Part shown: piece after piece, positions 28,462 to 47,370 of the stretch
How positions within the stretch are numbered: the stretch's first letter is position 1
Layout: every line of letters starts with the position of its first letter
Source of the DNA: Spirulinaceae cyanobacterium
GTDB taxonomy: Bacteria > Cyanobacteriota > Cyanobacteriia > Cyanobacteriales > Spirulinaceae
NCBI GenBank assembly: GCA_049601735.1
Contig: JBMYQW010000001.1
Location: 1 to 48,195, forward strand
Length of the DNA stretch: 48,195 nucleotides
Direction: 5' to 3'
Translations under genes and position numbers: made by a program
Notes under the pieces: generated by a model
Told to the model about the DNA's origin: nothing
The model's database searches: none
What the model saw: only the letters and a program-made list of their open reading frames with translations

Positions 28462-28549
28462 ATAATGACCGACTCTTCATTTCTGAGGATTTATTGTTTA
28501 ACAGAAACGACATTCTGTTAAATAACAATTGAAGTAAAGTATTTTTGTA
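28462..28549. repeat. Left copy of an ~88-bp imperfect direct repeat (att-like site A)
   Basis: The sequence ttctgaggatttattgtttaacagaaacgacattctgttaaataacaattgaagtaaagtatttttgta aligns with 47302-47370, ttcttgaggattcattgttcaaccgaaaagacattctgttcaataaaacttggactatagagtatttgtat. Identity is about 75-80% by eye, with small indels. It is AT-rich and lies 145 bp beyond the stop of the 739-aa recombinase gene. Confidence 0.7.
28497..28522. promoter_or_regulatory. Candidate tyrosine-recombinase core site: perfect 10-bp inverted arms around a 6-bp spacer
   Basis: The sequence is tttaacagaa-acgaca-ttctgttaaa. The arm at 28497-28506 is the exact reverse complement of the arm at 28513-28522. The geometry (two inverted arms, 6-bp central region) matches Xer/Int core sites. 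Confidence 0.5.
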
Positions 28550-28692
28550 CTTTGTGTCAATAGACAGGATTAATTGATAATATTGGACTAGCGAACGGTC
28601 GGGGAGTTCGGGAGCGTCACCACTCCCTTCTCCCCTAAAAACCGAACGAGCGATCTGAAAGTTGCACTTGAAAGCGAGGGTTTTGGGCGATC

Positions 28693-30912
28693 TTATTGCT
28701 GGCTCCTACACTTGCGCCGCTTATACTCCTGCAACTGATGCGGCGACAACAAATCAACTACATCAGGATCAAGATCGTGCGCATCTTTGAGACAGAGTTC
28801 CGCTGATGCCCCATCCACCTCAACAGCCTTCAACTCATACATCCCCTCAATCTCAGTGGCAAAGCGCTCCATCATATTCTGTGCCGGACGTAGCTCCTGA
28901 AAGCTCTGAAGTTCCGTGTAATTTTTGCGCTGCTGCTCCTCCGAGTGACGCTGCATCTTCGCCAGAGATCGCCGTTCTGCATCAGTGATGTTTTGCTCCA
29001 GGGCATAGGTCACTAGAATCGAGCGCAAGAGGTGCGGTCGAACCCCCGTATAGCCCGTAAACTGTGCCAACGCCCGCTCAAAAGCATACCCATAGTGACT
29101 GGAATCAACCGCTCGCCCCTTCTCGGTGGTAAAAAAATAATTGTGCAGCGGGTTCTGTCCCAAGAACGGACGCCATTGAGCCAACCACTCATCCATGTAG
29201 TCATAGAGAGTCTTCCCCGTACGAAAGCGACGATTGGGAATATGGCACGTCCAGCCACCCACATCGATCGTATTGCGTTTGCCATCCGCTGGCGTGAGAT
29301 CCAGCCACCACAATGCATTCTCCTGCTCCAATGGCGATAGCTTGTCATAGGGCGTAAAGGCAGTTCCTGTCGCGTTAAAGCAACCCCGAATCAACGTCTT
29401 ACCCAGCTCTAAACTGTAATAAACCTTGGAGCGGCCGGGGGGCAATGCCGTGGCGATCGCCAAGATCAGCGCCCGCTTTAAATCCCGGGCTATGGCGAGA
29501 TCACTACGGTCAACTTGGCAAATTCGGGGAGACCCATCAGCCCTTTGAGCTCGTTTCGTCCGGGTCACTTGGGTTTTGTCCTTCTGCTCATATTTCTGAA
29601 AGGCGAGATCAACTGCCAGAAATACGGCTGGCCAAGGCACCATACGCTGCCGTTTTGCCTGTTTCATTCGGGTCTTCTCTCCAGAGCTAATCGCCAATTC
29701 GCAATGGGTGTTCGCCAGTTGCCGGAAAGCACGAATAATGGGCACATCTTCAAAGCCACGCTCTGGCTTGAAATGTTCGGTCTGATCCGCGTACAAATAA
29801 CGGGCTAAGTTAATCCAACTTTTGGTGTAGTTCACCCGACTATCATGCTGGACATCCTTCGCGTTTAAATACCGTTCCAAGCGCTGTCGGGAGGTCTTGA
29901 CCGTTTCATCCAAGGTCTCCTGAGCCATCACTTTGGCGAGCGCCAGCTCCTCGCGGGCGCGGCGGGGATTATTCGGGTATTGTTTGCAGAACGTACTGAG
30001 GCGCAATGTTTTCGGCAGCGGCGGTGCCTCGACGAGATCCTGCAAAGAGAGTTCAGCCAAAGGAATCTTCTCGGTGGTCACCACCCAATCGAAGGCTCGC
30101 AATATTTCGTGGACATCTCGCCGTACGGTTTGAAAAGAGCGGTTACAACGACAGAATAGAAAATTGGCAAATTCCAGCAGGCTACGATCCAGATCGGGGT
30201 TCCCCAACGCCAGCGCCGGTTCAATAGTCCTCAAGACTATCCAGAGCAGGATGAGCCCCAGCTTGTGGGAGCGCAGGCTGACGCCAGCCGCAGCCATGAA
30301 CATCTGATGCCACCCAAAAGGAATCACCGGGGCTGCGACCACTTGATAATGGGCTAAGTCTCGCCCAAACATTTGATTGGCAAAGCTCCGACCCCGCTTA
30401 TTCACATTGGGCGGAGCACCCTGACTATGGCGATAGATCACCAGGGGCTCTGGGGGGTCGGGCTCGGCGCTGAACCAGTCTTGTTGTTGCATCCACTGCT
30501 CAAATGCTTTGAACTTCGAGCGCAGATTGTTTTGCACCGATTTGGGCAGCTGGGCCTGCTTGCTGTATTGTTCAATCTTCTCATCCACATTGGTGAGGGC
30601 GGTGAGGGGTAAGTCAGCGAGGAATGCTTGCGCTTCCTGGCTCGCTTGATGAGTGAGTCGGGCACAGGTATGGCTGGGCCCGCCTAATGCGGGGGTTAAA
30701 TGACGGAAGAAAACCGATTGGACTCCTTTTTTCTGACTATCACTCACGTCAGGTTCTTCAAGGAAGAACGTTAATGCTTGGCCGACAGATTGGGGTCGTG
30801 TCACTTGAGACAATGGCACTTCAAGGAACTGTTGGTTGGCATCCGCCACGATTGTGGTGAAACCGGGAACTTGGTAGTCCGTCTGGGTTGAATAATGCGG
30901 GGTAAAATCCAT
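28693..30912 (-). CDS. Large divergent tyrosine recombinase (739 aa from the ATG at 30912), with a C-terminal catalytic domain and an ~470-aa uncharacterised N-terminal region
   Basis: This is track ORF 28693-30969, which starts on TTG. The ATG at 30912 gives MDFTPHYS.... The catalytic-domain motifs appear in order: ATALPPGRSKVYYSLELG (Arg I), GVRPHLLRSILVTYAL (His-x-x-Arg) and MQRHSEEQQRKNYTE (His ... Tyr). Confidence 0.7.
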   Translation of the reverse strand: MDFTPHYSTQTDYQVPGFTTIVADANQQFLEVPLSQVTRPQSVGQALTFFLEEPDVSDSQKKGVQSVFFRHLTPALGGPSHTCARLTHQASQEAQAFLADLPLTALTNVDEKIEQYSKQAQLPKSVQNNLRSKFKAFEQWMQQQDWFSAEPDPPEPLVIYRHSQGAPPNVNKRGRSFANQMFGRDLAHYQVVAAPVIPFGWHQMFMAAAGVSLRSHKLGLILLWIVLRTIEPALALGNPDLDRSLLEFANFLFCRCNRSFQTVRRDVHEILRAFDWVVTTEKIPLAELSLQDLVEAPPLPKTLRLSTFCKQYPNNPRRAREELALAKVMAQETLDETVKTSRQRLERYLNAKDVQHDSRVNYTKSWINLARYLYADQTEHFKPERGFEDVPIIRAFRQLANTHCELAISSGEKTRMKQAKRQRMVPWPAVFLAVDLAFQKYEQKDKTQVTRTKRAQRADGSPRICQVDRSDLAIARDLKRALILAIATALPPGRSKVYYSLELGKTLIRGCFNATGTAFTPYDKLSPLEQENALWWLDLTPADGKRNTIDVGGWTCHIPNRRFRTGKTLYDYMDEWLAQWRPFLGQNPLHNYFFTTEKGRAVDSSHYGYAFERALAQFTGYTGVRPHLLRSILVTYALEQNITDAERRSLAKMQRHSEEQQRKNYTELQSFQELRPAQNMMERFATEIEGMYELKAVEVDGASAELCLKDAHDLDPDVVDLLSPHQLQEYKRRKCRSQQ

Positions 30913-31413
30913 AGTGAGTCTGACCGTAAATAAGCCTTTAACCGATGATATGAATATCGCAACTCTCAACAGTGCGATCTGGCGAATAAATTTTTCCTGC
31001 TCACCTCTACGATGAGGTTTTTATTACAAAATCAGGCATTTATCTAGTTATACCAGATTTCGATATAGCCGTACTAAAGGCGGTTTTAAATGATCTTTTT
31101 CCTAGCCCAGATCCCTAAAAACCTTGATTGATAGGGGTTTCAGGTTGACGAGCAAAATTTGGTTTGTAATAAAAAAATTTTTGGCTTATTACAGCGAATT
31201 TTGAGGGTTTATGCGCATAAATGGATGAATTTCAGGATCGAGCTTTGGGCATAGCCGTTATTCTGTAATAAATTTTTTCGAGGATTTTCGAGAAAGATCC
31301 TGCATGTGTCGTGCCCGAGGAGGGCTCTGCACTGCCAAATTTGATTTCAGCGGATTGGACAACTGGCGATCGAGAAATTCAGATAATCGTTTATCACGAT
31401 TCAATGGATAGCA

Positions 31414-31677
31414 ATGCAGCAACACGGCCGGCCCCAATACAGCCGCAAAGGGAAACATCCTGGACAAGCTTGTCGCCGAGGAAAAGGGATATTTCACCAG
31501 GAAAGAAAGACAGCAATTAATTTCAGCCTGACGCCAACGGTGCAAGCGCGTTTGGGTCGGTTTGCCGATGCAGCGGGAACTTCCCGCTCGGAGCTGCTGG
31601 AGAATTTGCTCCGGCGCTTAACGGTCTCTGAGGTTTTGGCAGTCTTGGCGCAACAGGAGGGGCATGATAATTGCTGA
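31414..31677 (+). CDS. Small ribbon-helix-helix (CopG/Arc-like) protein, tentative
   Basis: 87-aa ORF with a basic N-terminus. It continues KTAINFSLTPTVQARLGRFADAAGTSRSELLENLLRRL, which fits the RHH pattern of a beta-strand followed by helix, G-x-S/T-R-S-E and helix. It lies between the Rep stop and the recombinase promoter region. The overlapping alternative ORFs (31258-31545 minus, 31311-31520 plus) show no recognisable motif. Confidence 0.45.
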   Translation: MQQHGRPQYSRKGKHPGQACRRGKGIFHQERKTAINFSLTPTVQARLGRFADAAGTSRSELLENLLRRLTVSEVLAVLAQQEGHDNC

Positions 31678-31763
31678 AGTCGGCGTAATGTCCATGTCAA
31701 AACTGCCCTGCCGGTGGGCGGAGGGACATTGGGAAAGGTTTTTGGCTTCTCCTCGGGTCTGGA

Positions 31764-34700
31764 CTAGGCGATCACCGGCTGCAATGTGCTCGATAGGGAA
31801 GTTATCCGCCAATTTTCGCAGGGAGAGGATGTTTGAACAGGCACTTGTTCCTCTTCTTTCCTCCCCCAGGCCACCCCTGGTAAAAGATATTTCATAAGGG
31901 GGGTGGCCGCTGGAGTTAATCCTTGTTGGAAGTGGTCTGGAGCTCGTTTGAGCAGTAGATCTTGCAAGGTATCAAAAGAATCCAGATGCACTTCATATCG
32001 CCGCGCCCGTTCGCCCTTGAGAGTAATCCGCTTAGAGCAGGTCTTGAGCCCATACCGCCGCAGGATTTCGCCCACAATTTGCACACCCGTCATTTTGGCA
32101 GGATTAAACCCGAGGCATAGCCGCACATCCTCAGAACAAGCCCGTGCCCGGTCTCCAACCGCTTTCACCCAAGGTGTATCCCGATACCAGCCTGCACCGG
32201 TGGCAGTTGCCTCTAGACATTTCTCTAGCAGTGCCGGAACCTCGAGGGCGATCGCCGCTTTAGCCTCGAATTCATCGCAGGGCCGGTCGTGGGGGGCGAT
32301 TGGTTGGTTCCAGCGGGTCAAGAGGGCCAGCTGGGCATCATCCTTTGCTTGTGCCAGTCCCTCCCAGAGCAGGTTCTCCAGTCGTGAGACATTGCGCCGG
32401 TAGCGACCCTTGCCATCAGCTTTAACCGCCTCGGGGGTGAGGGTCTCGGGGTGGATGTGGAAGAAGTCGCAAATCTTGAAGCGTTCTAGTTGCAGGGATT
32501 CAGCATGAGTGAGGGAGAGCTTCTCCTGTAAGGCTTTGGCGCGATCGCCATTAATGATGAGGGAGTCCACCACCTCAGGGAAATAGCGATCGCGCACCGC
32601 TTGAAGCCATCCCTGCCAGCGCTGGGCAGCAGCATCCGCCGCGCCGGTGGGAGTCCCGAGAGTCACGGTATGACCTGCGGCTTCGAGTCCTGCCTGGAGA
32701 TATGCGCCGAAATCTGCCATGGCTCGGTTTCGGGCAGCAGCTGCGGTTGCGATGTAGGCGGTGATCGCCTCGTGCTGGAGTGCAAACGAGCGGCCGGTGG
32801 CTTGGGTGTAGCGGCTTTCTTGACGGTCAAGATTCCTCTGGTAATCCCTGGCGTTGGTCGCACCGTTTTGATCCTTTACTCCCCGCGCCGCTGCAAAGAC
32901 GATTCGGGGCACGGCGGGACGACAGCGGGCGAGCTGCTGGATGGCGTCATTGGGGGCAATGGTCTTGCCCTCGAACAATCCCCCCACAAAATCAAAATAC
33001 TCCTCCTCAATGTTGATGCCGGAGGTCAGGGAGCTGTTGTGAATGACCAGGACGATGCCATGTTCCCTGAGCCATTTGGCCTTATCTTTGGCATCCAGGA
33101 ATGACTGCTGGAGTTTATTGCCCGAGGTTTCCCTGGTGATGGTCAGGATCGCTTCGGGGGGAACGCCGAGGGATTCAGCCATGAGCCTGAGTGCCTTAGC
33201 ACTAATGCGTTGGTCGCAGGCAATAATGCCAAATTCGCCGCGCCGGATACGGGTTTCAATCTCAGCGATCGCCGCGCCCCGTGCCTGCTTCTGAGCACCA
33301 GGGGCAGAGTCGTGGGTATAGAGGGTGATGGGATAAGCATTACCCTGGTAGTCGTTTTGCAGAATCCAGGGCTGCTCCTGCCGTAGAGCTACGAGGAGCT
33401 TAATATCCTGAGCTGAGAGCGTGCCAGATGCCGCAATCACCAGCCGCGCCCCATGAATCCGGTCAATGCCCCGTGCCACAATTCCGGGCCGCTTGCCGCC
33501 TTTTGCAACGGTTGCACCCTTGAGCAGATGCCAGAATCCCTGGTCTACCTCGTCGAGCACCAGAATGTACGAGCCATCGGGGAATAGCAGTGCCGGAACC
33601 TTCAGCAGCGAATCCCAGCAGAGGGAGACCCGCTTGGTGGGTAGCCCAGCTCGACTGATGATGTAGCCGCCGCCGAGATCAACTTCGCCGATGTATTCCA
33701 ACCCCAGACTTGTGGCCAAAGCGGTTTGCAAGCTGGCCCGATGACCTGGGGCTATCACCGCTTCGCAGTCAGCGATCAGCTTTTCAATGAGTTTGGTTTT
33801 CCCGGTTCCCAGTCCGCTGTGCAGAATGACAATTCCTTCGTTTTGGATGCTCTCTGGGGCGATCGCTGCGCCGAGGCAAGGGACATTCACCCGTAGGTTG
33901 GGTTGATACTTGCCGAGGGGGTTCTTTACTGCATTCCGTGCCTTGTAGAGCGCGTAGAGAGTTGCACCGGCGATCGCCTTCTCCATCGCTGCTGGCCCAG
34001 ACTTGGCAATCAAGTCATCCAGTCCCTTACCTTGCCTTGGCTGCCATTGAGCCACGGAGAGCACTGCCCCCCTGGAGCCGATTGCCCCACGGAGAATGCC
34101 GATGCCCTGTTTGACTGCTTTTTTGGCGCTGCCTTTGGTGTCGGCATCGAAGGCGACGCTAATGAGCCGTCCTGGTGTGAGGAAGGGGACGAGGTCTTCA
34201 GAGCGACCGCATTTGCAACCATAGAGGGCGATCGCGATGTATCCCTGAGAGAGTGCTGCGAGGGCTTTTTTGGCCCCTTCGGTGATGACGAGCGGCAGCT
34301 CGGGGTGGGTTTCAACCCATGCCCAAAAGCTGCCATGGTCAGTGATTTCTGAGGAGACAGATTTGAAGTTGAGGCTGTGGCGATCGCAGATGAGCTTCAA
34401 TACCGCATCGGGGATGGGCGGCAGATACGCCCGGTTCCCAATGCCCTTAGGGGCAAGGTATTTTCCGCGCCGCCCGTCGGCCTGGAGAACCCCCAGCTCC
34501 CGCTTTACCTGCCAGACGGAACTATCCTCGTTTCGGAAGATCAAGCCTTGTTCGTTGGCTTTTGCCTGCCGACCGAATCGGGTATATCGCTTGCCCAGTG
34601 CATCGTCTAGGGGGGTGGCGATCGGTTCTCTGGTGGTGGGGTGGTACTCGATCTCCTTAGCAATCTCGACTGCTCTGCCGATGAAGCTGGGATGGATTGC

Positions 34701-34820
34701 GGATTGTTCCAGCTCTAGTTCGGGAGATTCTGGTGGGTGTGGTGAGCCTGGTTTGGAGGGTTCTGAAGGGAGTCCAATTGTCCGCCTTAAAGCGGCATCA
34801 CAGTTTTGGAGGCGAGTCAT
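31764..34820 (-). CDS. Plasmid replication protein of the cyanobacterial CyRepA type: Toprim-like DUF3854 domain plus a P-loop helicase/NTPase
   Basis: 1018-aa ORF. The Toprim-like block reads LPLVITEGAKKALAALSQGYIAIALYGCKCG...SVAFDADTKGSAKKAV...GKGLDDL. Walker A is HSGLGTGKTK and Walker B is ILVLDEVDQ. Similarity to Synechocystis pSYSA Slr7037-type Rep proteins is from memory and not searched. Confidence 0.72.
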   Translation of the reverse strand: MTRLQNCDAALRRTIGLPSEPSKPGSPHPPESPELELEQSAIHPSFIGRAVEIAKEIEYHPTTREPIATPLDDALGKRYTRFGRQAKANEQGLIFRNEDSSVWQVKRELGVLQADGRRGKYLAPKGIGNRAYLPPIPDAVLKLICDRHSLNFKSVSSEITDHGSFWAWVETHPELPLVITEGAKKALAALSQGYIAIALYGCKCGRSEDLVPFLTPGRLISVAFDADTKGSAKKAVKQGIGILRGAIGSRGAVLSVAQWQPRQGKGLDDLIAKSGPAAMEKAIAGATLYALYKARNAVKNPLGKYQPNLRVNVPCLGAAIAPESIQNEGIVILHSGLGTGKTKLIEKLIADCEAVIAPGHRASLQTALATSLGLEYIGEVDLGGGYIISRAGLPTKRVSLCWDSLLKVPALLFPDGSYILVLDEVDQGFWHLLKGATVAKGGKRPGIVARGIDRIHGARLVIAASGTLSAQDIKLLVALRQEQPWILQNDYQGNAYPITLYTHDSAPGAQKQARGAAIAEIETRIRRGEFGIIACDQRISAKALRLMAESLGVPPEAILTITRETSGNKLQQSFLDAKDKAKWLREHGIVLVIHNSSLTSGINIEEEYFDFVGGLFEGKTIAPNDAIQQLARCRPAVPRIVFAAARGVKDQNGATNARDYQRNLDRQESRYTQATGRSFALQHEAITAYIATAAAARNRAMADFGAYLQAGLEAAGHTVTLGTPTGAADAAAQRWQGWLQAVRDRYFPEVVDSLIINGDRAKALQEKLSLTHAESLQLERFKICDFFHIHPETLTPEAVKADGKGRYRRNVSRLENLLWEGLAQAKDDAQLALLTRWNQPIAPHDRPCDEFEAKAAIALEVPALLEKCLEATATGAGWYRDTPWVKAVGDRARACSEDVRLCLGFNPAKMTGVQIVGEILRRYGLKTCSKRITLKGERARRYEVHLDSFDTLQDLLLKRAPDHFQQGLTPAATPLMKYLLPGVAWGRKEEEQVPVQTSSPCENWRITSLSSTLQPVIA

Positions 34821-35131
34821 ACCGTCACCCCCTGCTGGTCTGATGTTTGTGTCGTCACTATTGTTTGGAGCGTAAGGGATGCCCTAGTATCTAAATCCGC
34901 CTCCTGGCAACTGTAGATTTGAGCGATTTTCCTTGCCCTTAGCCCATCATCAAATGCTGAAAACCCCAGCAGAGAGTGGGATACAGCGTTTTTGTAAATT
35001 TGTGGATTTTTGGTCTCTTTGGCGAAGCGCACAGATGCAGGAGCTGCGCTAGGCTGTGCGACGCCATTTGCATCCGTAACCCGATGGATGCTGCTGGTTT
35101 GCGGGTTGCCAGCGCCCTCATGAATTTTCAT
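34817..35131 (-). CDS. Hypothetical 104-aa protein, translationally coupled to the Rep gene
   Basis: The ATG is at 35131-35129. Its stop overlaps the Rep ATG by 4 nt (ATGA at 34820-34817). No recognisable motif. Confidence 0.4.
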   Translation of the reverse strand: MKIHEGAGNPQTSSIHRVTDANGVAQPSAAPASVRFAKETKNPQIYKNAVSHSLLGFSAFDDGLRARKIAQIYSCQEADLDTRASLTLQTIVTTQTSDQQGVTV

Positions 35132-35601: not shown

Positions 35602-36267
35602 CTACAAATCCTCAGGATTAACACCCAGCTCCCGCAGTTTGGCGAAGGCGCGATCGCGTTCGGCTTGAGCGACCTCTTCCCCCAGAGCGAATGCTTCAGG
35701 GTCTTTGAATGGCTTACCGTTCGGGTGGAATACGGCCAAGCCGTCCTCAAGCATCTCGAACCGAATCCCCAGTAGGGGGGAAGTCCAAGGCAGATTGGCG
35801 GGAATGACAGCACTTGGGGAATCTGTTGTATTCTCTCGCGCCAGTCCCCAGAACTCATGGGAATCCGGATCGTAGAAGTACATCTCCAGAACACCGTGTT
35901 TGATGTAAAACCCTTGCTTGGCAAACATTTCCGCTACGGTGTTGCTGGGTGAAATGATTTCAAAAACCACCTGGGGGGCGACGCCATCCTCTTTCCACTG
36001 CTGATAGCTGCCGCGATCGCCCTCGGGACGCCCCAAGACCACCATGGCATCTGGGGCCTGACGGGGTGCGGTTTCCCCTTTGCCAACTTGAACGGGATAC
36101 CAAAGCAAGTCTCCAGCGACAAATGCAGTTTGGTCTTTGAGCAGGTGTCTCAGGTTGGTGACAAGACGGGTAATCCATTGATACTGCTTAGTATTGTCAG
36201 CCATGGGTTTGCCATCTGAGTCGGGGTATTGGGTTTCGAGTTCGGGTCTGATGGGGGTTTGAACCAT
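35602..36267 (-). CDS. Uma2-family (DUF820) PD-(D/E)xK-like endonuclease, copy 1
   Basis: 221 aa. Family-typical strings are YPDSDGKPMADNTKQYQWI, AFVAGDLLWYP, PDAMVVLGRPEGDRGSYQQWKEDGVAPQVVFEIISPSN and GVLEMYFYDP. Confidence 0.8.
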   Translation of the reverse strand: MVQTPIRPELETQYPDSDGKPMADNTKQYQWITRLVTNLRHLLKDQTAFVAGDLLWYPVQVGKGETAPRQAPDAMVVLGRPEGDRGSYQQWKEDGVAPQVVFEIISPSNTVAEMFAKQGFYIKHGVLEMYFYDPDSHEFWGLARENTTDSPSAVIPANLPWTSPLLGIRFEMLEDGLAVFHPNGKPFKDPEAFALGEEVAQAERDRAFAKLRELGVNPEDL

Positions 36268-36375
36268 GGGTTTGAGTTCTCCGTTTCGGGTAGTCTATTT
36301 GCATGAGGCTTCTTCTCTTGAATGGCGCAATCGCTGATCTGAACCATTGCATCGAAGTACCTTTAGCTGTGGTGG

Positions 36376-37086
36376 TCATTTCAAATCCTCAGGATTGACA
36401 CCCAGCTCCCGCAGTTTGGCAAAAGCGCGATCGCGTTCGGTCTCGGTCTGTCCAAGTTTGGCTTCGGTCTGGGTGAGCTGGGCTTTAGCCTCGTTTCGTT
36501 CTTTCGCCAACTCAGAAAAAGTCTTGAAGGGCTCTCCATTGGGGTAGAACATCTCTAAGCCATCCTCCTGCATCTCGAACCGAATCCCCAGCAGGGGTGA
36601 AGTCCAAGGCAGATTGGCGGGAATGACAGCGATTGGGGAATCTGTTGCATTCTCTCGCGCCAGTCCCCAGAACTCATGGGAATCCGGATCGTAGAAGTAC
36701 ATCTCCAGAACACCGTGTTTGATGTAAAACCCTTGCTTGGCAAACATTTCCGCTGCGGTGTTGCTGGGTGAAATGATTTCAAAAACCACCTGGGGGGCGA
36801 CGCCATCCTCTTTCCACTGCTGATAGCTGCCGCGATCGCCCTCGGGACGCCCCAAGACCACCATGGCATCTGGGGCTTGTCTGGGTGCGGTTTCCCCCTT
36901 TTCGACTTGAACGGGATACCACAGCAAGTCTCCGGCGACAAATGCGGTTTGGTCTTCGAGCAGTAGTTTCAAGTTCTCGACAATGCGGACAATCCACTGG
37001 TACTGCTTCGTGTTGTCAGCCATGGGTTTACCGTCTGAGTCGGGGTAGAGGGTTTCAATTTCGGTTTTGATGGGGGTTTGAACCAT
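36376..37086 (-). CDS. Uma2-family (DUF820) PD-(D/E)xK-like endonuclease, copy 2, with a longer C-terminal coiled-coil tail
   Basis: 236 aa, with the same motifs as copy 1. The extra C-terminal segment reads FSELAKERNEAKAQLTQTEAKLGQTETERDRAFAKLRELGVNPEDLK. Confidence 0.8.
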   Translation of the reverse strand: MVQTPIKTEIETLYPDSDGKPMADNTKQYQWIVRIVENLKLLLEDQTAFVAGDLLWYPVQVEKGETAPRQAPDAMVVLGRPEGDRGSYQQWKEDGVAPQVVFEIISPSNTAAEMFAKQGFYIKHGVLEMYFYDPDSHEFWGLARENATDSPIAVIPANLPWTSPLLGIRFEMQEDGLEMFYPNGEPFKTFSELAKERNEAKAQLTQTEAKLGQTETERDRAFAKLRELGVNPEDLK

Positions 37087-37091
37087 GGGTT

Positions 37092-37649
37092 TTAGTTCTT
37101 CGTTTCGGGTAGTTTGTAAGGGTCATGTCCTAGCTGCCGGAGCCGTTCGAGGAAGCGATCGCGCTCCCATCGGATTTCGTCGTCAATGGCCATCCCCTCC
37201 CCAACGTCTTGGAGAAACCGCCACATTTCATCAATCTGGGTTTGTAGCCGTTGGTTCCGCTCGGACTCGCTGCGCTCGACACCAAAGGCTGCGTCAAAGC
37301 GGCGTTCTAGGGTTTCGGGGGCGATCGCCATCACCAAAGCCATCGCCTCTTTATTCCCTTTTGAACATTCCCAGACCCAGTAGGCAGTGACAACGTTAAG
37401 CGGTAAGGCGTTGAACCGGGTTTGCCCACGATAATCTGACTCAACCTCTAAAGTGACGGCCGTGTACTCTTTACCCAGTAAGGTTTTGATGCCCTTTGAT
37501 CCCAAAAAGCGACGGGCGCTCGATTCGGGCTTGCTGATGCACTCAGCCGCCTGGGTCTGACTCAGCCGATAGGAGCCATCGGGTAGCATATAGCCCTCTA
37601 AGGTACGGCTGCCAAGTTGAATTTGAGCGCGTTTGGCTTTGATCGTCAT
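37092..37649 (-). CDS. Conserved hypothetical 185-aa protein, possibly DNA-binding and P63C-like (very tentative)
   Basis: The ORF is in the operon. Its start overlaps the upstream gene's stop (ATGA at 37649-37646), and its stop lies 5 nt before the Uma2 copy 2 start. The sequence reads LEGYMLPDGSYRLSQTQAAECISKPESSARRFLGSKGIKTLLG. The family name is a weak recollection. Confidence 0.55.
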   Translation of the reverse strand: MTIKAKRAQIQLGSRTLEGYMLPDGSYRLSQTQAAECISKPESSARRFLGSKGIKTLLGKEYTAVTLEVESDYRGQTRFNALPLNVVTAYWVWECSKGNKEAMALVMAIAPETLERRFDAAFGVERSESERNQRLQTQIDEMWRFLQDVGEGMAIDDEIRWERDRFLERLRQLGHDPYKLPETKN

Positions 37650-37966
37650 TGTTTGAATGCCTCATCAAACTTTTGAGTCAGCCCGCCCTGAACGTAGGTA
37701 ATGCAGTTTTGAATCGCCTCATCCTGCCCCAGTCGCACGTTCATCAGCAGTGGCATGGGGTTGTCACATTCACCTCCTGCATGGATGCATTCCAATATGA
37801 GTGATTCGGTTTTAGGGTTGCCTTCGTAATATTGCCAAGTCCAAAGCGATGCAGTGGCCCACAAGTTGCAGGTGGCTTCTTGTCTGCCGTCTTCGGTCTC
37901 AACAATTTGGCCCCACTCGGCGAGGGGATGGCGGAATTTTGGGGGGATGTTGTCAAAATCAGTCAT
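37646..37966 (-). CDS. Hypothetical 106-aa protein
   Basis: ORF in an operon context on the minus strand with a 4-nt overlap to the downstream gene. No motif recognised. Confidence 0.5.
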   Translation of the reverse strand: MTDFDNIPPKFRHPLAEWGQIVETEDGRQEATCNLWATASLWTWQYYEGNPKTESLILECIHAGGECDNPMPLLMNVRLGQDEAIQNCITYVQGGLTQKFDEAFKQ

Positions 37967-37997
37967 GGTGCGGAGTGCTCCACTCAGATGAGAGTGT

Positions 37998-38351
37998 TTA
38001 TGATTCAGTGTCTACGGCGTCATGCCGATCCGGGTCTAAATCTGCAACAGGACTGACGCCTCCCTTCATAGCCTCCGAAATTAGCTGATCTACCTTGTCT
38101 GGATCAGTATAAATTAACTCTAAAAAATCACGTCGAGACAATCCGCAGCTATCGGCGTAGAACCCAACTTCACCCATAATCCGGGTTTCACTCTGCCGTA
38201 GATACATTGATAAGCAGTGATGCGCTTGGGTTGTGCGTTTGCGTTGGGTACGAAAATAGGAGAGCGCTGCCAATAGGCGATCCTCGTATGGAGCTAGGGG
38301 ACGCAAGTGTAGTCGTTTTGGTTCTGTGCTGTCTTTTTGAGGTTGGGGCAT
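37998..38351 (-). CDS. Hypothetical 117-aa protein
   Basis: ORF in the minus-strand operon, between the RHH gene and the 106-aa gene. No motif recognised. Confidence 0.45.
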   Translation of the reverse strand: MPQPQKDSTEPKRLHLRPLAPYEDRLLAALSYFRTQRKRTTQAHHCLSMYLRQSETRIMGEVGFYADSCGLSRRDFLELIYTDPDKVDQLISEAMKGGVSPVADLDPDRHDAVDTES

Positions 38352-38651: not shown

Positions 38652-38693
38652 TTGCACTCTAGAACTCTAGCACGCTAGTATTCTAGAGTGCAA
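38652..38693. promoter_or_regulatory. Candidate operator: perfect 13-bp inverted repeat in the divergent promoter region
   Basis: ttgcactctagaa (38652-38664) and ttctagagtgcaa (38681-38693) are exact reverse complements, separated by 16 bp (ctctagcacgctagta). The site lies between the divergent starts at 38603 (minus) and 38775 (plus). Confidence 0.5.
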
Positions 38694-38774
38694 AGCAAGT
38701 AGTTACTAAGTGTTTTTTTTCCAAAACCCGCACAAACCACTTACCACTGCCCTTTGATGTAGACACACCAAGGA

Positions 38775-39101: not shown

Positions 39102-39113
39102 GGATCAAGAACC

Positions 39114-39491: not shown

Positions 39492-39561
39492 AGCCAAGCC
39501 GCTTTCTCACCACCGCTTGACTCTATTGCTTACCCGAGGGGCTTTTCAGCCCTCATTACCT

Positions 39562-40822: not shown

Positions 40823-40871
40823 CCATTATTAAACCGTTGTGCCGTCAGGGTTCTGGCGGCTTTACTTTGTC

Positions 40872-42101: not shown

Positions 42102-42176
42102 GTGCGATCGCGGGAAGTCCGACAAACCTGTGACTTTTATCACGATACTTTGTTTGCGAATGTCACAAACCACCTT

Positions 42177-42206
42177 TTGTCAAGTCACAGAAATAAACTG
42201 TAATAA
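42177..42206 (+). promoter_or_regulatory. Possible sigma70-type promoter for the small Psb34-like gene
   Basis: ttgtca (42177-42182) and taataa (42201-42206) are separated by 18 nt, about 65 nt upstream of the ATG at 42273. This rests on sequence pattern only. Confidence 0.3.
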
Positions 42207-42272
42207 TCCGTTACATTGGTATCAACAACACGAAACGACAGCACTCTTCTACTTCTCTTGGAGGTTCTCACC

Positions 42273-42443
42273 ATGTACACCACTGTTAACCCCGACGGCC
42301 AACTCAACAACTACGCTGTTGAACCGGAAATGTATTTCGCTGAATACCCCTCACTCTGGCAGCAACGTCGCTACCTCCAGCAGGGTGCTGCTGTCCTCGC
42401 CTTGGTTGCCAGCCTGATCGGGATTGCAGTCGGCGTTAGCTAG
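42273..42443 (+). CDS. Small single-TM protein resembling the ssl1498 / Psb34 (light-harvesting-like, PSII assembly) family
   Basis: The ATG at 42273 is preceded by GGAGG at 42260-42264. The 56-aa product is MYTTVNPDGQLNNYAVEPEMYFAEYPSLWQQRRYLQQGAAVLALVASLIGIAVGVS. The pattern G.LNN(F/Y)A.EP.(M/V)Y.AE.PS..QQR.Y plus one C-terminal TM helix matches my recollection of this family. No search was run. Confidence 0.55.
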   Translation: MYTTVNPDGQLNNYAVEPEMYFAEYPSLWQQRRYLQQGAAVLALVASLIGIAVGVS

Positions 42444-42527
42444 TCGGTCTTGCGTCTGATATCGAGTCAATACTCCTCTCTTTCACTTTTTCTCCTCCTA
42501 CGTTCCCATAAACCTTTTTGAGCTTTT

Positions 42528-42554
42528 CCCCTGTTCTCCCAGGGGATTTTTTTA
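42528..42554 (+). terminator. Rho-independent terminator after the Psb34-like gene
   Basis: The stem is cccctg (42528-42533) paired with cagggg (42540-42545), followed by attttttta. Confidence 0.6.
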
Positions 42555-42882
42555 TGGCAGGGGTTTTGGATTCCACCTTATACCGAATCCGTAAATTGGG
42601 GCTACAGATCAGAAACTGAGGGCTGAGCGGAGTCGAAGTCCGGCGGTTACGATCGAACGTTCATGTGTAGTCGGACTTTTGTGTTTTGGTATTAATGGTG
42701 ATTTCGAGCACATCATTCAGGGAGGGCGATCGCCCCCCGACCCAACCGCCCCCACTCTTCCATCGTTACTCCCATCAACCTCAAACCCCCTCAAGGTTCA
42801 CAGTGCAGGACGTGACCCCATCACGGAGCAAACGGGGCAAAAACTGGATACTGATAACTGTAGAGAGAAACCCATCCGACCC

Positions 42883-43077
42883 ATGCTTCAACTCCAACTC
42901 CTCCCCGGCGCTATCTCTGCAATGTTCGCCGATGCTACTGAAACCAAGACCTTGACCGAAGCCGACCGCTACGGCTTACTGGCTGCCATCCTCACGGAAG
43001 ATATCGAAGACGAGGAGCGCCGCGCTGTTGACCGCATTCTCCGCTCCGTCCGTCGCGGCAAGCTGGCGATTGCCTAA
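42883..43077 (+). CDS. Hypothetical 64-aa protein
   Basis: This ATG lies within track ORF 42679-43077. The product is MLQLQLLPGAISAMFADATETKTLTEADRYGLLAAILTEDIEDEERRAVDRILRSVRRGKLAIA. It is followed by a clean terminator. The start choice is uncertain. Confidence 0.4.
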   Translation: MLQLQLLPGAISAMFADATETKTLTEADRYGLLAAILTEDIEDEERRAVDRILRSVRRGKLAIA

Positions 43078-43129
43078 GCTCAGCTAAACCAGATTTTCAG
43101 TTTTCTCTCTATCTCCTCTTGTGGATCTG

Positions 43130-43157
43130 ACCCAGCTTTACGGCTGGGTTTTTCTTT
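43130..43157 (+). terminator. Rho-independent terminator
   Basis: The stem is acccagc (43130-43136) paired with gctgggt (43143-43149), followed by ttttcttt. Confidence 0.6.
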
Positions 43158-43254
43158 GGCTGGATAATCCCAATATACCGGGGAGCAATCGTACCGAAAA
43201 AGTTCCCAGGCTTAGGTGGTTCTTTCTATGGCGTGACCCCTGGTTCGACTCTGC

Positions 43255-44175
43255 TCATGGTTCTTCTAACAGAGTGTCGATCTGCTCCAAAAGCGCTTGA
43301 ACCTGCTGCCATTTTTTAGGGTTTCTCTCCCAAAATTTACTCTTTTGTAAGCGTTGGTAAGTTGACTTCAGTTGAGTTTGAGGTTTGCTGCTTTGTTCCG
43401 TCTTGCTCACTAGAGCTGCTATTCGTTCTTTGATCTGGGTTAGTGAGAGTTGTTCGGCGATCGCCGCCTTGAGAATTTTTCGTCGCTGGCGAGTATCTTT
43501 CACTTTGGCGATCGCACGGGCTTTCGTAAATTGAATCTGACCTAAGCGCAGAGCTTCGATTATGTCATTAGGTAGGTTGAGTAGAGGGAGGCGATGTGTA
43601 CGAAATGATTCAGCGGAAAAACGTCCTAGCTTTGTGAATAGCTCATCGATAAGATTTTGTTCTTCTGGGCGGACAACGTTGTCCGCTACGCCACGTTGCT
43701 GCTTGGCAGACTGGTTAAGCAAACGAATCACATCATCTTGGGAGCGCTCAAGGCGTATTGCCAAGAGCTGCAAGATACTTTCTGTTTCCTCTATGGGGTT
43801 TAAATCTTCACGCTGGAGATTTTCAATCAGTGCGACTGCGATCGCTTGCTGGTCGTCTAGCTGGTGGCTCACGACCGGAATTTCGTGCAGTCCAATTTCT
43901 TGAGCGGCTCGGTATCGACGCTCACCGGCCACAAGTTCATATTTGTCACCTTTCGGTCGGACTAATAGGGGTTGGAGGATACCGTGTTCTTTAATAGATG
44001 CGATCAGGCTCTCCATGGCTGTTGGATCAAAATAGCGTCGGGGCTGTTGTTCAGGCAGAACGATTTTGTCGATCGCGACCGTGGTGATCGGTTGATTGGT
44101 TGAGTCAATTGAGTCAAACAGTCCAACGTTTTTCATGGTTCGGCGTTTGGCTGGAGGAGGAGTACGATTACTCAT
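43255..44175 (-). CDS. parB: ParB/Spo0J-family partition protein
   Basis: 306 aa. Motifs: IDKIVLPEQQPRRYFDPTAMESLIASIKEHGILQPLLVRP...YELVAGERRYRAA. The start overlaps the parA stop (TGATG). Confidence 0.9.
   Translation of the reverse strand: MSNRTPPPAKRRTMKNVGLFDSIDSTNQPITTVAIDKIVLPEQQPRRYFDPTAMESLIASIKEHGILQPLLVRPKGDKYELVAGERRYRAAQEIGLHEIPVVSHQLDDQQAIAVALIENLQREDLNPIEETESILQLLAIRLERSQDDVIRLLNQSAKQQRGVADNVVRPEEQNLIDELFTKLGRFSAESFRTHRLPLLNLPNDIIEALRLGQIQFTKARAIAKVKDTRQRRKILKAAIAEQLSLTQIKERIAALVSKTEQSSKPQTQLKSTYQRLQKSKFWERNPKKWQQVQALLEQIDTLLEEP
43669..43686. promoter_or_regulatory. Candidate parS-like centromere site (18-bp perfect palindrome), copy inside parB
   Basis: gcggacaacgttgtccgc is identical to the copy at 44999-45016. 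Confidence 0.5.
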
Positions 44176-44945
44176 CAGAGTGCCTCCATTGCTTGAGCGA
44201 GTTCGTCAAATTGTTTGAGTAGTTCCTTATGCTTGGTCGGGGCGAGGGCTAACGGTAAACCGTATTCGGTAGCTTCTGCGATCGCGGTGGCCCTGGGCAT
44301 CGGGGGGAAGACGGTCGCAATCCCTGAGAGCTGTTCTTCGAGGGCTTCTAAGGTTCGCTTGTCTAGAGAATTAGTGACCTGATACATCGTGGGCAGAAAG
44401 CCAGCAAGGGCCAGTTGAGTATTGAGCCGCTTACGAACTCGTGCAATAGTCCCCAGGAGCGAGTCTGTCCCGATCAGGGCCTTAAACTGGCATTGCACCG
44501 GAACGAGAATGTGAGTCGCTGCCACCAACGCGATCTGGCTCAGAAGACCAAGGGAGGGAGGGCAGTCAATCAGAATAAAGTCATAATCTTTGGCAATGGG
44601 TTCGAGAATGTGACGCAGGCGCAGCTCACGTAATTCTGCGAAGATTAATTCCTGCTCAGCATTGGCCAGGAGTAAATTGGCTGGGACAAAATCCATCTCA
44701 TGAATCTGCGACAGGATGGGGAGTGGGATCTCATCTTGGTCTTCTGGTGGGATCAAGGCGTTGTAGATTGTGACCTTCTGTTGATCGGCTTCTAGCCCCA
44801 TGAAGCTGGTGAGTGAGGCTTGAGGATCGAGGTCAATGAGGAGAACCCGGTGTTTGCGGCTAGCAAGGTGATAGCCGAGATTTTGCGTTGTCGTTGATTT
44901 GGCGACCCCTCCAGCTTGGTTAAAGAGGGCGATGGTTTTAGCCAA
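44175..44945 (-). CDS. parA: ParA/Soj-family partition ATPase
   Basis: 256 aa. Motifs: MAKTIALFNQAGGVAKSTTTQNLGYHLA (deviant Walker A), VLLIDLDPQ and FILIDCPPSL. Confidence 0.9.
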   Translation of the reverse strand: MAKTIALFNQAGGVAKSTTTQNLGYHLASRKHRVLLIDLDPQASLTSFMGLEADQQKVTIYNALIPPEDQDEIPLPILSQIHEMDFVPANLLLANAEQELIFAELRELRLRHILEPIAKDYDFILIDCPPSLGLLSQIALVAATHILVPVQCQFKALIGTDSLLGTIARVRKRLNTQLALAGFLPTMYQVTNSLDKRTLEALEEQLSGIATVFPPMPRATAIAEATEYGLPLALAPTKHKELLKQFDELAQAMEAL

Positions 44946-44998
44946 TGGTTTAGAGGGTATGGGGTGAATGGATGTTCAAGATCATCATATTTCTTTTG

Positions 44999-45016
44999 GC
45001 GGACAACGTTGTCCGC
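44999..45016. promoter_or_regulatory. Candidate parS-like centromere or operator site (18-bp perfect palindrome) upstream of parA
   Basis: gcggacaacgttgtccgc lies 54 nt upstream of the parA ATG, in the parA / DUF1016 divergent intergenic region. Confidence 0.5.
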
Positions 45017-45086
45017 TTTTTGCGCTTTTTGGGTAAGAGTCTTTAGCATGAGGGGGGTCTAGCCTTTCTGCCTGTGAGTTTGCCTT

Positions 45087-46145
45087 ATGTCAAAACAGTT
45101 TTCCTTGTTCTCAGATCATCATTACATTCAGTTTCTGGAAGGACTCAAGCAGCGTATTCGTTCGGCGCAATTGAGGGCAGCCTTAGCTGTAAACCAGGAG
45201 TTGATTCATCTCTACTGGCAGATTGGGCGTGAGATTATTCTGCGGCAGGAAGAGCAGGGTTGGGGTAGCAAGGTCATTAGTCAGCTTGCGAAGGATCTCA
45301 AGCGGGAGTTCCCGGAAATGACGGGATTTTCGACAACGAACCTCAAATATATGCGTTCGTTTGCGCGGGCCTACACTGAGGCTGAAATTGGTCAACGCTG
45401 CGTTGACCAATTGCCCTGGCGACACAATATCGTTCTGTTCACCAAACTCAAAACGCCAAAAGCGCGATTTTGGTATGCCCAGAAAGCACTGGAGAACGGC
45501 TGGAGTCGGGATGTTCTGGTGATGCAGATCGAGAGTCAGCTTTTTGAACGCCAAGGGGGTGCGATTACCAATTTTGAGCGAACGCTGCCCGTACCACAGT
45601 CGGATCTGGCCCAGCAAATCATCAAAGATCCCTATAATTTCGATTTTTTGTGTTTGGCTGAGAATGCCCAAGAGCGTGATCTGGAGCGGGGGTTGTTGTT
45701 GAATATTCGGGATTTTCTCCTGGAGCTGGGGATGGGGTTTGCATTTTTAGGGAGTCAGTATCCTATTGAGGTCGATGGGAAGGAATACCGGATCGACTTG
45801 CTGTTCTATCACATCCAACTCCGTTGCTTTGTGGTCATTGATCTCAAGATGGGCGAGTTTCAGCCAGAGTTTTCGGGCAAGATGAATTTTTACGTTTCGG
45901 CGGTGGATGATTTATTGAAGCAGCCGGTGGATAACCCCACGATTGGTTTGATTCTGTGCAAGACAAAGAGTAAAACGACGGCAGAATATGCACTCCGGAA
46001 TTTGAGTACGCCCATTGGCGTTTCGACTCATCAGCTTCCCAGGCAATTGGCTGAGCAGTTACCTTCGGTTGAGCAGCTAGAGCTACAGTTGGAGACAGTG
46101 GATTTGGCAAGGGAGGCGGAGTCTTGTGATGATTCCTCGGTTTAG
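45087..46145 (+). CDS. DUF1016 / YhcG-family PD-(D/E)xK nuclease domain protein
   Basis: 352 aa. The N-terminus reads FLEGLKQRIRSAQLRAALAVNQELIHLYWQIGREI...GWGSKVISQLAKDLKREFPEMTGFSTTNLKYMRSFARAY. The nuclease core reads RIDLLFYHIQLRCFVVIDLKMGEF. Confidence 0.85.
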   Translation: MSKQFSLFSDHHYIQFLEGLKQRIRSAQLRAALAVNQELIHLYWQIGREIILRQEEQGWGSKVISQLAKDLKREFPEMTGFSTTNLKYMRSFARAYTEAEIGQRCVDQLPWRHNIVLFTKLKTPKARFWYAQKALENGWSRDVLVMQIESQLFERQGGAITNFERTLPVPQSDLAQQIIKDPYNFDFLCLAENAQERDLERGLLLNIRDFLLELGMGFAFLGSQYPIEVDGKEYRIDLLFYHIQLRCFVVIDLKMGEFQPEFSGKMNFYVSAVDDLLKQPVDNPTIGLILCKTKSKTTAEYALRNLSTPIGVSTHQLPRQLAEQLPSVEQLELQLETVDLAREAESCDDSSV

Positions 46146-46216
46146 GTTTCCTCTGGAGGTCACGCCATAAAAAGGAAACTCGGACTCCCCCTCAACCCCC
46201 TATACACCAAGACTTT

Positions 46217-47197
46217 TCAAAACCGAATTCGCTCAATATCATCCAAACTCACCATCTCCCGCCGCCGGTCATACAACGCCGTCGTCCGCACATCCGCATG
46301 ACCCGCGATGTACTGCGCCCGGTCTCTCGACCCCCCATTCGTCAAAAAATTCGTAATCCCCGTCGCCCGGAAACTATGGTTGCAAATCTCCCCCGCCAAC
46401 CCCGCATCAGCCACCCGTCGCCGGATCATCCGCCAAGCCGAATCCCGAGACAACGCCCGCTCCGTCAGCGTGCGGCTGCGCCCACGGGTTGACCGAAACA
46501 GCGGCGTATGGGGAGATTCCGACAACCCACCCGCCTCGATGTAGGCATCCAGGTATTCCTCCAAGGTATGATGCACCGGAATCTTGCGCTCCTTACTCCC
46601 CTTCTCCGCCAGCTTCAGAAAGAACTTCTTCCCCTGGGGCGCATAATCCTTCACCTGGAGCTGGATCACCGCCCCAATCCGCGCAAACGTAAACAGCATC
46701 ACCCCAATCACAGCCCGATCGCGCAAACCCACCACATGGCTCGTATCAATCGAATCCAGCAACTCGCGCGTTTCCTCGGTTTCGAGCACCGGGGTCTTGC
46801 CCTCGGTGTAGGACATACGCGGACGCTTCACCTCATGACAGGGGTTCTCTGGAAAGTGCCCCTTGGCAATCATCCAATCAAAAAACTGCGTTAACCCGGC
46901 GAGTTGCTGGTGGATAGTGGCAATGGAACAAGGATGCAGCTCTATATATAAGGAGATAACTCTTTGCGTCACGTCCGTCAGGCGCGTTAACCCCTTTTCA
47001 TGACACCAATCACAAAATCGTTTAACTGCCCGCGTATAGGCACTTCTCGTATGAGGGTTGCGAATCGTGACGACGAAGAAATCTAAAAAGTCGTTGAGGA
47101 ATTGTTCACTCTCGCCGGAAACGAGTAGCGGTAACTTTGTTCTATCTGGGGTTGCAAGCGGGGCGGGTTCGCGTGAGACGTGCAAAAGTTGGTACAT
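46217..47197 (-). CDS. Tyrosine recombinase / phage-type integrase (326 aa)
   Basis: The N-terminal SAM-like segment is TIRNPHTRSAYTRAVKRFCDWC. The catalytic residues lie in FARIGAVIQLQVKDY (Arg), HSFRATGIT (His-x-x-Arg) and GHADVRTTALY (His ... Tyr). Confidence 0.9.
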   Translation of the reverse strand: MYQLLHVSREPAPLATPDRTKLPLLVSGESEQFLNDFLDFFVVTIRNPHTRSAYTRAVKRFCDWCHEKGLTRLTDVTQRVISLYIELHPCSIATIHQQLAGLTQFFDWMIAKGHFPENPCHEVKRPRMSYTEGKTPVLETEETRELLDSIDTSHVVGLRDRAVIGVMLFTFARIGAVIQLQVKDYAPQGKKFFLKLAEKGSKERKIPVHHTLEEYLDAYIEAGGLSESPHTPLFRSTRGRSRTLTERALSRDSAWRMIRRRVADAGLAGEICNHSFRATGITNFLTNGGSRDRAQYIAGHADVRTTALYDRRREMVSLDDIERIRF

Positions 47198-47285
47198 TTA
47201 TACTCTTTCGTTGCATGGAGGTTGTTTTGTTCTTGGGTTGAGTGTAGCATCAAGTTGTACAGCATAAAAAGATATTATGTTGCTT

Positions 47286-47370
47286 AATAACGGTCGTTCT
47301 ATTCTTGAGGATTCATTGTTCAACCGAAAAGACATTCTGTTCAATAAAACTTGGACTATAGAGTATTTGT
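47286..47370. repeat. Right copy of the ~88-bp imperfect direct repeat (att-like site B)
   Basis: It aligns with 28462-28549 (see that feature). It starts about 90 bp upstream of the integrase ATG at 47197. Confidence 0.7.
47319..47344. promoter_or_regulatory. Candidate recombinase core site in repeat B: imperfect arms with the same 6-bp spacer geometry
   Basis: The sequence is ttcaaccgaa-aagaca-ttctgttcaa. The left arm has 2 mismatches to the reverse complement of the right arm. The string gacattctgtt is shared exactly with site A. Confidence 0.45.

Follow-up and report, generated by a model that had tools for sequence, protein, structure and literature searches.

The DNA analysed here (the window) is a stretch of 48,195 nucleotides (nt) from contig JBMYQW010000001.1 of a Spirulinaceae cyanobacterium (assembly GCA_049601735.1), and it contains, between 28.5 and 47.4 kb, a segment in which genes for replication, partition and site-specific recombination are gathered beside a giant polymorphic toxin gene and a type I secretion system (T1SS). 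We consider the chance somewhat better than even that the contig represents a circular CyRepA1-type plasmid of ~53 kb, in which an 18.8-kb maintenance backbone and a ~34-kb toxin module without a Rep gene lie between two diverged copies of one site, as a cointegrate or a captured module at an Xer-type resolution site. An earlier reading of this DNA (the original prediction) had described the segment as an integrated plasmid or cointegrate. The plasmid-type maintenance unit that it recognized, composed of Rep, ParAB and recombinases, holds up as a discrete unit bounded by repeats that resemble recombination sites, and a cointegrate fits the architecture described below, whereas capture in a host chromosome agrees poorly with a contig of 52,992 bp of which both ends lie in DNA of the toxin-locus type.

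The segment is delimited by one direct repeat pair of 87 nt, returned by a repeat search of the window, of which the copies are 75% identical and spaced 18,822 nt apart, in keeping with the att-like repeats that had been placed there before.

28463..28549, forward strand: site copy 1, with a dif-like 11-6-11 core GTTTAACAGAA-ACGACA-TTCTGTTAAAT at 28496-28523, between the convergent genes for an HlyD-family protein and a recombinase of 739 amino acids (aa)
47285..47371, forward strand: site copy 2, in the same orientation, with the core GTTCAACCGAA-AAGACA-TTCTGTTCAAT at 47318-47345; 120 nt separate the core from the start of the 326-aa recombinase gene

Both copies contain a 28-bp site with two inverted 11-bp arms around a 6-bp centre, beside a recombinase gene, and this 11-6-11 layout is the one by which dif and pdif sites are defined (PMC6449649). 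The right arm of the core agrees with the XerD arm of Escherichia coli dif (TTATGTTAAAT; the dif sequence was checked verbatim in the literature) at 10 of 11 positions. The two cores are identical at 24 of 28 positions, one of the four mismatches being in the 6-nt centre (ACGACA versus AAGACA), and the longest identical run between the copies is 11 nt (GACATTCTGTT), so that they do not share an identical crossover core of the att type. A 33-nt degenerate consensus of both copies matches the window at these two places alone when up to three mismatches are allowed, with 0 matches in shuffled windows; as it was built from the copies themselves, this consensus excludes a third copy in the window and is no independent test of chance. 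Reconstruction of parental sites by swapping the arms left the palindromy score unchanged and is uninformative on the direction or age of an exchange.

Could the repeats instead be terminator hairpins, or a small intergenic repeat element that flanks the segment by chance? Both are intergenic and follow gene ends, and copy 1 can form a hairpin of 13 bp (z = -2 to -3.5). However, copy 2 has no fold (z = +0.4 to +0.7), a T-run is absent, the terminator scan found no site at either repeat, the HlyD gene has a terminator-like site of its own at 28299-28315, no third copy occurs in the window or in related loci, and an Rfam scan of the window gave no match. Since copy 2 forms no hairpin and the copies differ without compensatory changes, we regard the repeats as DNA sites rather than RNA hairpins; the terminator or hairpin reading was rejected on these grounds, and a chance flanking element of this kind seems to us scarcely credible.

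Searches for the site elsewhere gave a mixed picture. The site pattern matched genome contigs once, inside a Paraburkholderia coding region with no recombinase nearby, a match that was treated as chance. In a metagenome collection it matched five times, in each case unrelated to this plasmid. Three related phage-like JGI metagenome contigs carry the identical 11-nt arms GTTTAACAGAA and TTCTGTTAAAT around three different 6-nt centres (L019 1147-1174, L020 2700-2727 and L021 4705-4732). In L019 and L021 a gene for a 195-aa tyrosine recombinase begins 115 nt downstream of the site; its product is confined to the catalytic domain and shares 26% identity with the 326-aa protein. L021 also bears a phage capsid gene; as support for an Xer-type site, these arms upstream of recombinase genes are suggestive only. 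The same palindrome was also observed in AT-rich metagenomic DNA (L018 219-246 and L022 1664-1691), soon after an HlyD-family gene fragment. Copy 1 likewise follows an HlyD gene, and this proximity is probably a coincidence or due to a hairpin.

Two tyrosine recombinases, of 326 and 739 aa, had been proposed for the segment, and the sequence comparisons bear out both.

28693..30912, reverse strand: large divergent tyrosine recombinase, 739 aa, with catalytic residues R494, K545, H627/R630, H656 and Y665
31021..31271, no strand: cluster of four TTATTACAG motifs in alternating orientation, upstream of the large recombinase gene (4 of the 8 TTATTACAG-like matches of the window)
46217..47197, reverse strand: XerD-like tyrosine recombinase, 326 aa (Pfam E 9e-21; best NCBIfam match XerD, 2e-35)

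On its own, the 739-aa protein has no match in Pfam or the PDB, and its C-terminal part gives a marginal match to Phage_integrase (E 0.039) and a weak one to XerC (7e-5). A word-indexed homologue search returned a single relative, and an exhaustive search combined with a profile was needed, which brought up 333 representatives of the family at E<=1e-3, mostly of ~600 aa. Since R494, K545, R630, H656 and Y665 are invariant in a 40-member alignment of this family and the family profile matches XerD (1a0p, E 1.3e-8), the comparison at the protein level confirms the 739-aa protein as a divergent large tyrosine recombinase; the profile also matches the structures of an XerC-like protein, Tn1549 Int, XerH and XerA, and Pfam Phage_integrase is matched by 15 of the 40 family members. 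Distant homologues (~22-27% identical by tblastn) occur on free cyanobacterial plasmids, including the 14.8-kb Cal7716_p9 and the 20.6-kb pANACY.05. As the latter holds a large recombinase together with a 325-aa integrase and ParA, the combination of a large and a small recombinase is not peculiar to the window. The motif cluster lies in a region that is ~74% conserved upstream of a 742-aa homologue in contig L012, and it may be bound by the large recombinase or act as its operator.

For the 326-aa protein the best NCBIfam matches are XerD (122 bits) and XerC, both far under the equivalog cut-offs of ~330 bits; judged by these scores it is Xer-like and not an orthologue of XerC or XerD. Its nearest plasmid relatives are 44-47% identical and reside on small proteobacterial plasmids.

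What could have placed the two recombinase genes at opposite ends of the segment, an arrangement that had been called unusual? The closest Rep in the protein collection, 76% identical, is encoded on a 29.9-kb Logan contig (L007), which shares with the window a block consisting of a 106-aa gene, a 185/189-aa gene, Uma2, a small open reading frame (ORF) and Rep, in the same order and at 74-76% DNA identity, and which encodes a 326-aa recombinase that is 70% identical to that of the window. In L007 the order runs from Rep over the small ORF and a 692-aa large recombinase to a 333-bp spacer and the 326-aa recombinase, and this spacer holds a perfect 11-7-11 palindrome, ATGCCTGATAA-GACCTTT-TTATCAGGCAT, the sole copy in the 22.6 kb of L007 that were scanned. 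In the window, the large and the 326-aa recombinase genes stand at opposite segment ends with one site copy on each outer side, and if the copies are joined, the stop of the 739-aa gene and the start of the 326-aa gene come to be 187 + 130 = 317 bp apart, similar to the 333 bp of L007. The position of the genes is explained if they are neighbours around the plasmid's own site, with the toxin/T1SS module lying in that site; once the segment is circularised they adjoin each other as they do in L007, and the arrangement loses its oddity. Other CyRepA1 relatives also carry a resolvase-type gene beside Rep, a serine resolvase in L013 and an Xer-like gene in L023.

The replication and partition genes that had been predicted for the segment are well supported by family searches.

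31764..34820, reverse strand: CyRepA1-family Rep, 1018 aa, with a DUF3854/Toprim-like domain and a P-loop helicase region
34817..35131, reverse strand: small ORF, 104 aa, overlapping the start of Rep
43255..44175, reverse strand: parB (ParB_N E 3e-30, HTH_ParB E 5e-10)
43669..43686, no strand: candidate parS, perfect 18-nt palindrome GCGGACAACGTTGTCCGC, inside parB
44175..44945, reverse strand: parA (AAA_31 E 4.8e-51)
44999..45016, no strand: candidate parS, identical palindrome GCGGACAACGTTGTCCGC, ~55 nt upstream of parA

The Rep protein has the architecture of the CyRepA1 family, with matches to Pfam DUF3854 (E 1.5e-28) and to the NCBIfam model CyRepA1 (NF042913, 217.1 bits versus a cut-off of 200), and it is 41% identical to the Rep of pANL over 93% of its length. 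A search of plasmid databases, which the original prediction had proposed, was productive at the protein level, with Rep homologues in 236 plasmid records, mostly cyanobacterial; at the DNA level, a megablast of the whole segment against PLSDB found no similarity to any plasmid there. The Rep scan of GTDB representative genomes found no relative. Autonomous replication by a rep region has been described for pSYSA and pCC5.2, and in pSYSA CyRepA1 and its upstream region suffice for it (PMC9978351). The gene ssr7036 sits upstream of cyRepA1 in pSYSA, where replication is primed (PMC9978351), and by position alone, homology not being established, the 104-aa ORF would be its counterpart. Tandem Repeats Finder detected no iteron array near rep. 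The partition locus combines a Walker-type ParA, a ParB with N-terminal and helix-turn-helix domains and, nearby, two identical perfect 18-nt palindromes, where 0.04 would be expected by chance, and is by these features a ParABS system with candidate parS sites, in line with the centromere palindromes suggested earlier. Likewise in agreement with the original prediction, Pfam, NCBIfam and PHROGs scans of all segment ORFs detected no relaxase, type IV secretion system or phage structural gene.

The other part of the contig is occupied by the toxin and secretion genes.

2..28162, no strand: cargo module outside the segment, poor in the octamer HIP1 (0.17/kb)
2-22027, reverse strand: giant Big/RHS polymorphic toxin gene, >7,342 codons, which leaves the left edge of the window
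22522-23277: gene for a peptidyl-prolyl isomerase (PPIase)
23256-26333: gene for an exporter with cyclic nucleotide monophosphate (cNMP)-binding, C39 and ABC parts, the N-terminal cyclic-nucleotide-binding domain preceding a C39-like domain
26657-28162: HlyD-family gene
47542..48195, reverse strand: gene of a 224-aa family, truncated where the contig ends, 7 codons after its start; forms the opposite border of the cargo module

The source contig is 52,992 bp long; its end coincides with the right edge of the window, and the remaining 4,797 nt lie to the left of the window, on the side where the giant RHS gene continues. The right end cuts the 224-aa-family gene 7 codons in, the product in the window (P0070) being 217 aa long and beginning at residue 8 of the 224-aa homologue P0071. 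Members of this ~225-aa family (P0070-P0091) have no Pfam domain and recur directly downstream of giant polymorphic toxin loci in L009, L010 and L011, not in L008. In L009 an RHS C-terminus is followed by DUF1877 and then by a 224-aa gene 88% identical to that of the window; in L010 the gene comes after a 4,745-aa toxin, and in L011 after RHS genes on a contig that also bears ParAB. The family could comprise accessory or immunity-related genes of toxin loci. Because the right contig end cuts a gene whose relatives follow giant toxin loci, and the giant toxin gene leaves at the other end, the contig as read from its gene order probably closes to a circle of ~53 kb, which is the simplest topology.

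Is the segment, alternatively, an autonomous plasmid of 18.8 kb that integrated beside the toxin locus of a larger replicon, either a chromosome or a megaplasmid, and could excise again, with the repeats as attL and attR? Direct repeats do bound a complete set of maintenance genes, a circle closed at these repeats would have its genes in the order of L007, the contig might stop at a break caused by repeats, and in Synechocystis CyRepA1 plasmids are known to fuse with another plasmid or with the chromosome (PMC9978351). However, the contig measures just 53 kb with both ends in the same kind of toxin locus, which fits a circle, the window holds no tRNA, tmRNA or other chromosomal marker, no empty site was found, the flanking type of toxin/T1SS locus occurs on the plasmid-like contig L011, and the spacers of the site copies differ. 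Moreover, Logan unitigs cross both sites (L001 at copy 1, L006 at copy 2) without the branching expected from abundant excised forms. We consider an integration of this kind unlikely. The original prediction had asked whether chromosome or megaplasmid surrounds the segment; the contig is of plasmid size. The repeats had been taken as att sites. As the whole contig is plasmid-like, with the only visible rep and par genes within the 28.5-47.4 kb segment, they are better read as copies of the plasmid's own Xer-type resolution site.

The unitigs bear on the assembly as well. Those of SRR27204700, an independent assembly, are identical to the window over both site junctions, and their unbroken and unbranched course confirms these junctions; that they show no sign of abundant excised forms is weak negative evidence.

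The composition of the DNA changes at the left boundary. The HIP1 octamer (GCGATCGC) occurs at 1.38/kb in the segment versus 0.17/kb outside, and the step coincides with the left site copy; a chromosome-like contig of a related cyanobacterium has 1.69/kb. Tetranucleotide usage sets the giant gene clearly apart from the backbone, the T1SS genes only weakly. As a separate observation, the last 3.1 kb of the segment (44279-47371, with part of parA, the YhcG gene and the 326-aa recombinase gene) contain zero HIP1 octamers where ~4 would be expected at backbone density, and this end of the backbone may be of different origin.

One might also see the contig as an old, fixed mosaic, in which the repeats serve as regulatory or protein-binding elements (operators, accessory sites), had no part in the arrival of the toxin genes and do not recombine. 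The copies are 75% identical with mismatches to the left and right of the centre, the searches near relatives brought up neither the module nor the site a second time, and copy 2 falls within the promoter region of the 326-aa gene, a place where one would expect autoregulation. Nonetheless, the copies are directly oriented and sit where L007 has its single palindrome between the recombinase genes, the spacer lengths add up, the core combines the dif architecture with an XerD-like arm, and the HIP1 step falls at the left copy. We rate such a fixed mosaic as rather improbable.

How would a plasmid with a captured module have come about? In the ancestral state, the two recombinase genes would have been adjacent, with one dif-like site between them, upstream of the XerD-like gene, an arrangement that L007 would have kept. 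We infer from Xer-type and other plasmid resolution systems that the 326-aa recombinase would be the acting enzyme, binding both site arms and resolving plasmid multimers as long as the site is present in a single copy. A second circle with a related site would then have fused to the backbone by tyrosine-recombinase strand exchange, leaving one site at each junction; the comparison with L007 suggests such a fusion, though the state of L007 may equally have come from a deletion. The resulting module of ~34 kb would start at copy 1, extend to the left across the joined contig ends and finish at copy 2, and would comprise the giant RHS toxin, PPIase, ABC exporter, HlyD and 224-aa genes. More speculatively, the mismatch in the 6-nt centre might hinder or block re-excision and so keep the cargo on the replicon, which bears on the presumed present activity of the sites, and the large recombinase might act elsewhere, perhaps at the TTATTACAG cluster at 31021-31271. 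A bolder extension, in which the 34-kb toxin/T1SS locus is itself a mobile cassette that lacks both Rep and recombinase and moves between cyanobacterial plasmids through dif-like sites, with Xer-like recombinases supplied in trans, strikes us as quite doubtful; in it, the linked large recombinases of 600-740 aa could be a second player, for example by controlling the direction of the reaction or by acting at that cluster.

Several observations weigh against a captured module on a 53-kb circle. The large recombinase of L007 is only ~20% identical to the 739-aa protein, so that the site region has been replaced and not inherited intact; exchange around the site region also fits a recombination hot spot. 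The Rep scan of GTDB representatives and the site scans of the genome and metagenome collections found no module-free twin of the backbone, nor did these site scans show the toxin module anywhere else. The two site copies have just 11 consecutive identical bases in common and unlike spacers; there is no sign of recent exchange between them, and they may not be active. In tetranucleotide usage the T1SS genes do not differ much from the backbone (r = 0.85), an ambiguous result for this part of the module. Regarding topology, the window leaves 4,797 nt of the contig uncovered and gives no direct view of the circle. Judging from L009, ~1.8 kb of these outlying 4.8 kb would be needed for the rest of the RHS gene, an immunity gene and the missing gene start, with the other ~3 kb unaccounted for. 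Finally, homologues 88% identical to the gene in which the contig ends are present in other assemblies, and one Logan unitig is likewise interrupted within this gene; a repeat-induced assembly break in a larger replicon is a possible cause of this end.

Within the cargo, the giant toxin contains Big-type Ig domains, with RHS repeats at its visible end, and is still in the repeat core where the gene leaves the window; this visible end aligns to the start of the last ~300 residues of the RHS fragment in L009. The cNMP-binding domain of the exporter points to cNMP-gated secretion of the giant toxin. Separately, a 109-nt stretch in the spacer between the ABC and HlyD genes (26444-26550) is 80% identical to L008 16937-17044, in a gap between gene calls on a chromosome-like contig from a related cyanobacterium (GCA_039180005.1), and might represent either a conserved non-coding RNA or a dispersed element of small size. 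Assembly GCA_010672165.1, of which the Rep is labelled Spirulina sp. SIO3F2 by NCBI, holds both L014, a CyRepA1 backbone with a Rep 49% identical to that of the window, and L009, a short contig with the RHS C-terminus, DUF1877 and the 224-aa gene; this organism may carry a similarly composed plasmid in pieces.

The backbone carries further genes between and beside those for replication and partition.

35602-36267 and 36376-37086, reverse strand: two tandem Uma2-family (PD-(D/E)XK) paralogues
37092..38351, reverse strand: three small backbone genes, of 185, 106 and 117 aa
38775..42101, forward strand: six-gene operon, divergently transcribed, encoding small proteins, most of them apparently membrane-bound as judged by eye, with a 420-aa protein as the last
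45087..46145, forward strand: YhcG/DUF1016 PD-(D/E)XK nuclease (PADLOC candidate defence family PDC-S02, E 7e-150)

The Uma2 paralogues share a 300-nt stretch that is 93% identical and match PADLOC PDC-S03 weakly; together with the YhcG gene they are possible defence cargo on the backbone. The 420-aa protein has an N-terminal membrane segment, a Walker-A P-loop ATPase domain and a C-terminal zinc ribbon with four cysteines. Family searches with it returned generic Walker-A matches only, and no family could be assigned to the operon. A 421-aa protein of L014 was considered as a homologue and rejected as not homologous, and identity as a conjugation ATPase could not be shown from the generic matches; a role of the operon in DNA transfer is conceivable. 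We further noted a near-perfect palindrome of 20+20 nt (TTGCACTCTAGAACTCTAGC / GCTAGTATTCTAGAGTGCAA) at 38652-38693, a candidate operator or origin element within the AT-rich promoter region of 423 bp that separates the divergent 117-aa and 108-aa genes.

If the contig is indeed a plasmid with a captured module, the multimer-resolution site of a CyRepA1 plasmid can serve as an entry point for very large cargo, in this case a polymorphic toxin gene of >22 kb with a secretion system, and a single spacer change between the site copies may lock such cargo in. If the module were moreover a mobile cassette, it would be a cyanobacterial counterpart of pdif modules and integron cassettes that is ~10x larger and carries a polymorphic toxin system. 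With its 28-bp site, the 326-aa recombinase forms a concrete pair that might serve as a recombination tool for CyRepA-based cyanobacterial vectors, and the search results flag a sizeable uncharacterised family of large tyrosine recombinases on cyanobacterial plasmids. For annotation practice, calls of a plasmid inside a genome would profit from a check of contig size and end synteny before an integrated episome is reported.

Among known systems, the backbone is most directly comparable with the CyRepA1 plasmids pSYSA of Synechocystis 6803 and pANL of Synechococcus elongatus 7942, with which it shares a Rep of DUF3854/Toprim-like and helicase parts and a small ORF directly upstream of rep. The size is also alike, pANL being 46 kb and the S. 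elongatus plasmids 15-50 kb. In contrast to these plasmids, the backbone in the window adds two tyrosine recombinases and a duplicated dif-like site, where pANL has only a tyrosine recombinase fragment. Fusions of CyRepA1 plasmids with other replicons are known, and proceed via transposase homology (PMC9978351). Plasmid cargo between 28-bp dif-like sites of the 11-6-11 layout is also a feature of the pdif modules and XerC/D cointegrates of Acinetobacter, where plasmids fuse and resolve by tyrosine recombination at such sites and variation of the central region separates site classes (PMC6449649, PMC5790767). Those systems use the host XerC and XerD, inverted site pairs and modules of a few kb, whereas the window has a single plasmid-encoded XerD-like recombinase, near-palindromic arms, direct copies and ~34 kb of cargo in a cyanobacterial host. 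With its direct repeats, and with no second module context in the genome and metagenome scans, the locus differs from a pdif module, which is defined by an inverted pair and several contexts.

Plasmid-encoded multimer resolution by tyrosine recombinases is well established, with Cre/loxP of P1, ResD/rfsF of F and Rsd/crs as examples. The L007 arrangement is of this type, with a single inverted-repeat core just upstream of the recombinase gene and near the replication and partition genes. The window differs from these systems in its two diverged direct copies, apparently unresolved, and in its linked large recombinase. Integrative elements exploiting Xer (IMEX), such as CTX phage, provide another parallel, as do integrated plasmids: as proposed for the window, a circle bearing a dif-like site joins a second replicon at such a site, and two sites then flank the product. 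Unlike in IMEX, the partner in the window is apparently a toxin module without Rep, the recombinase is borne by the element, and a chromosomal dif context is absent. On our reading, the locus is a variant of the known plasmid fusions at Xer sites.

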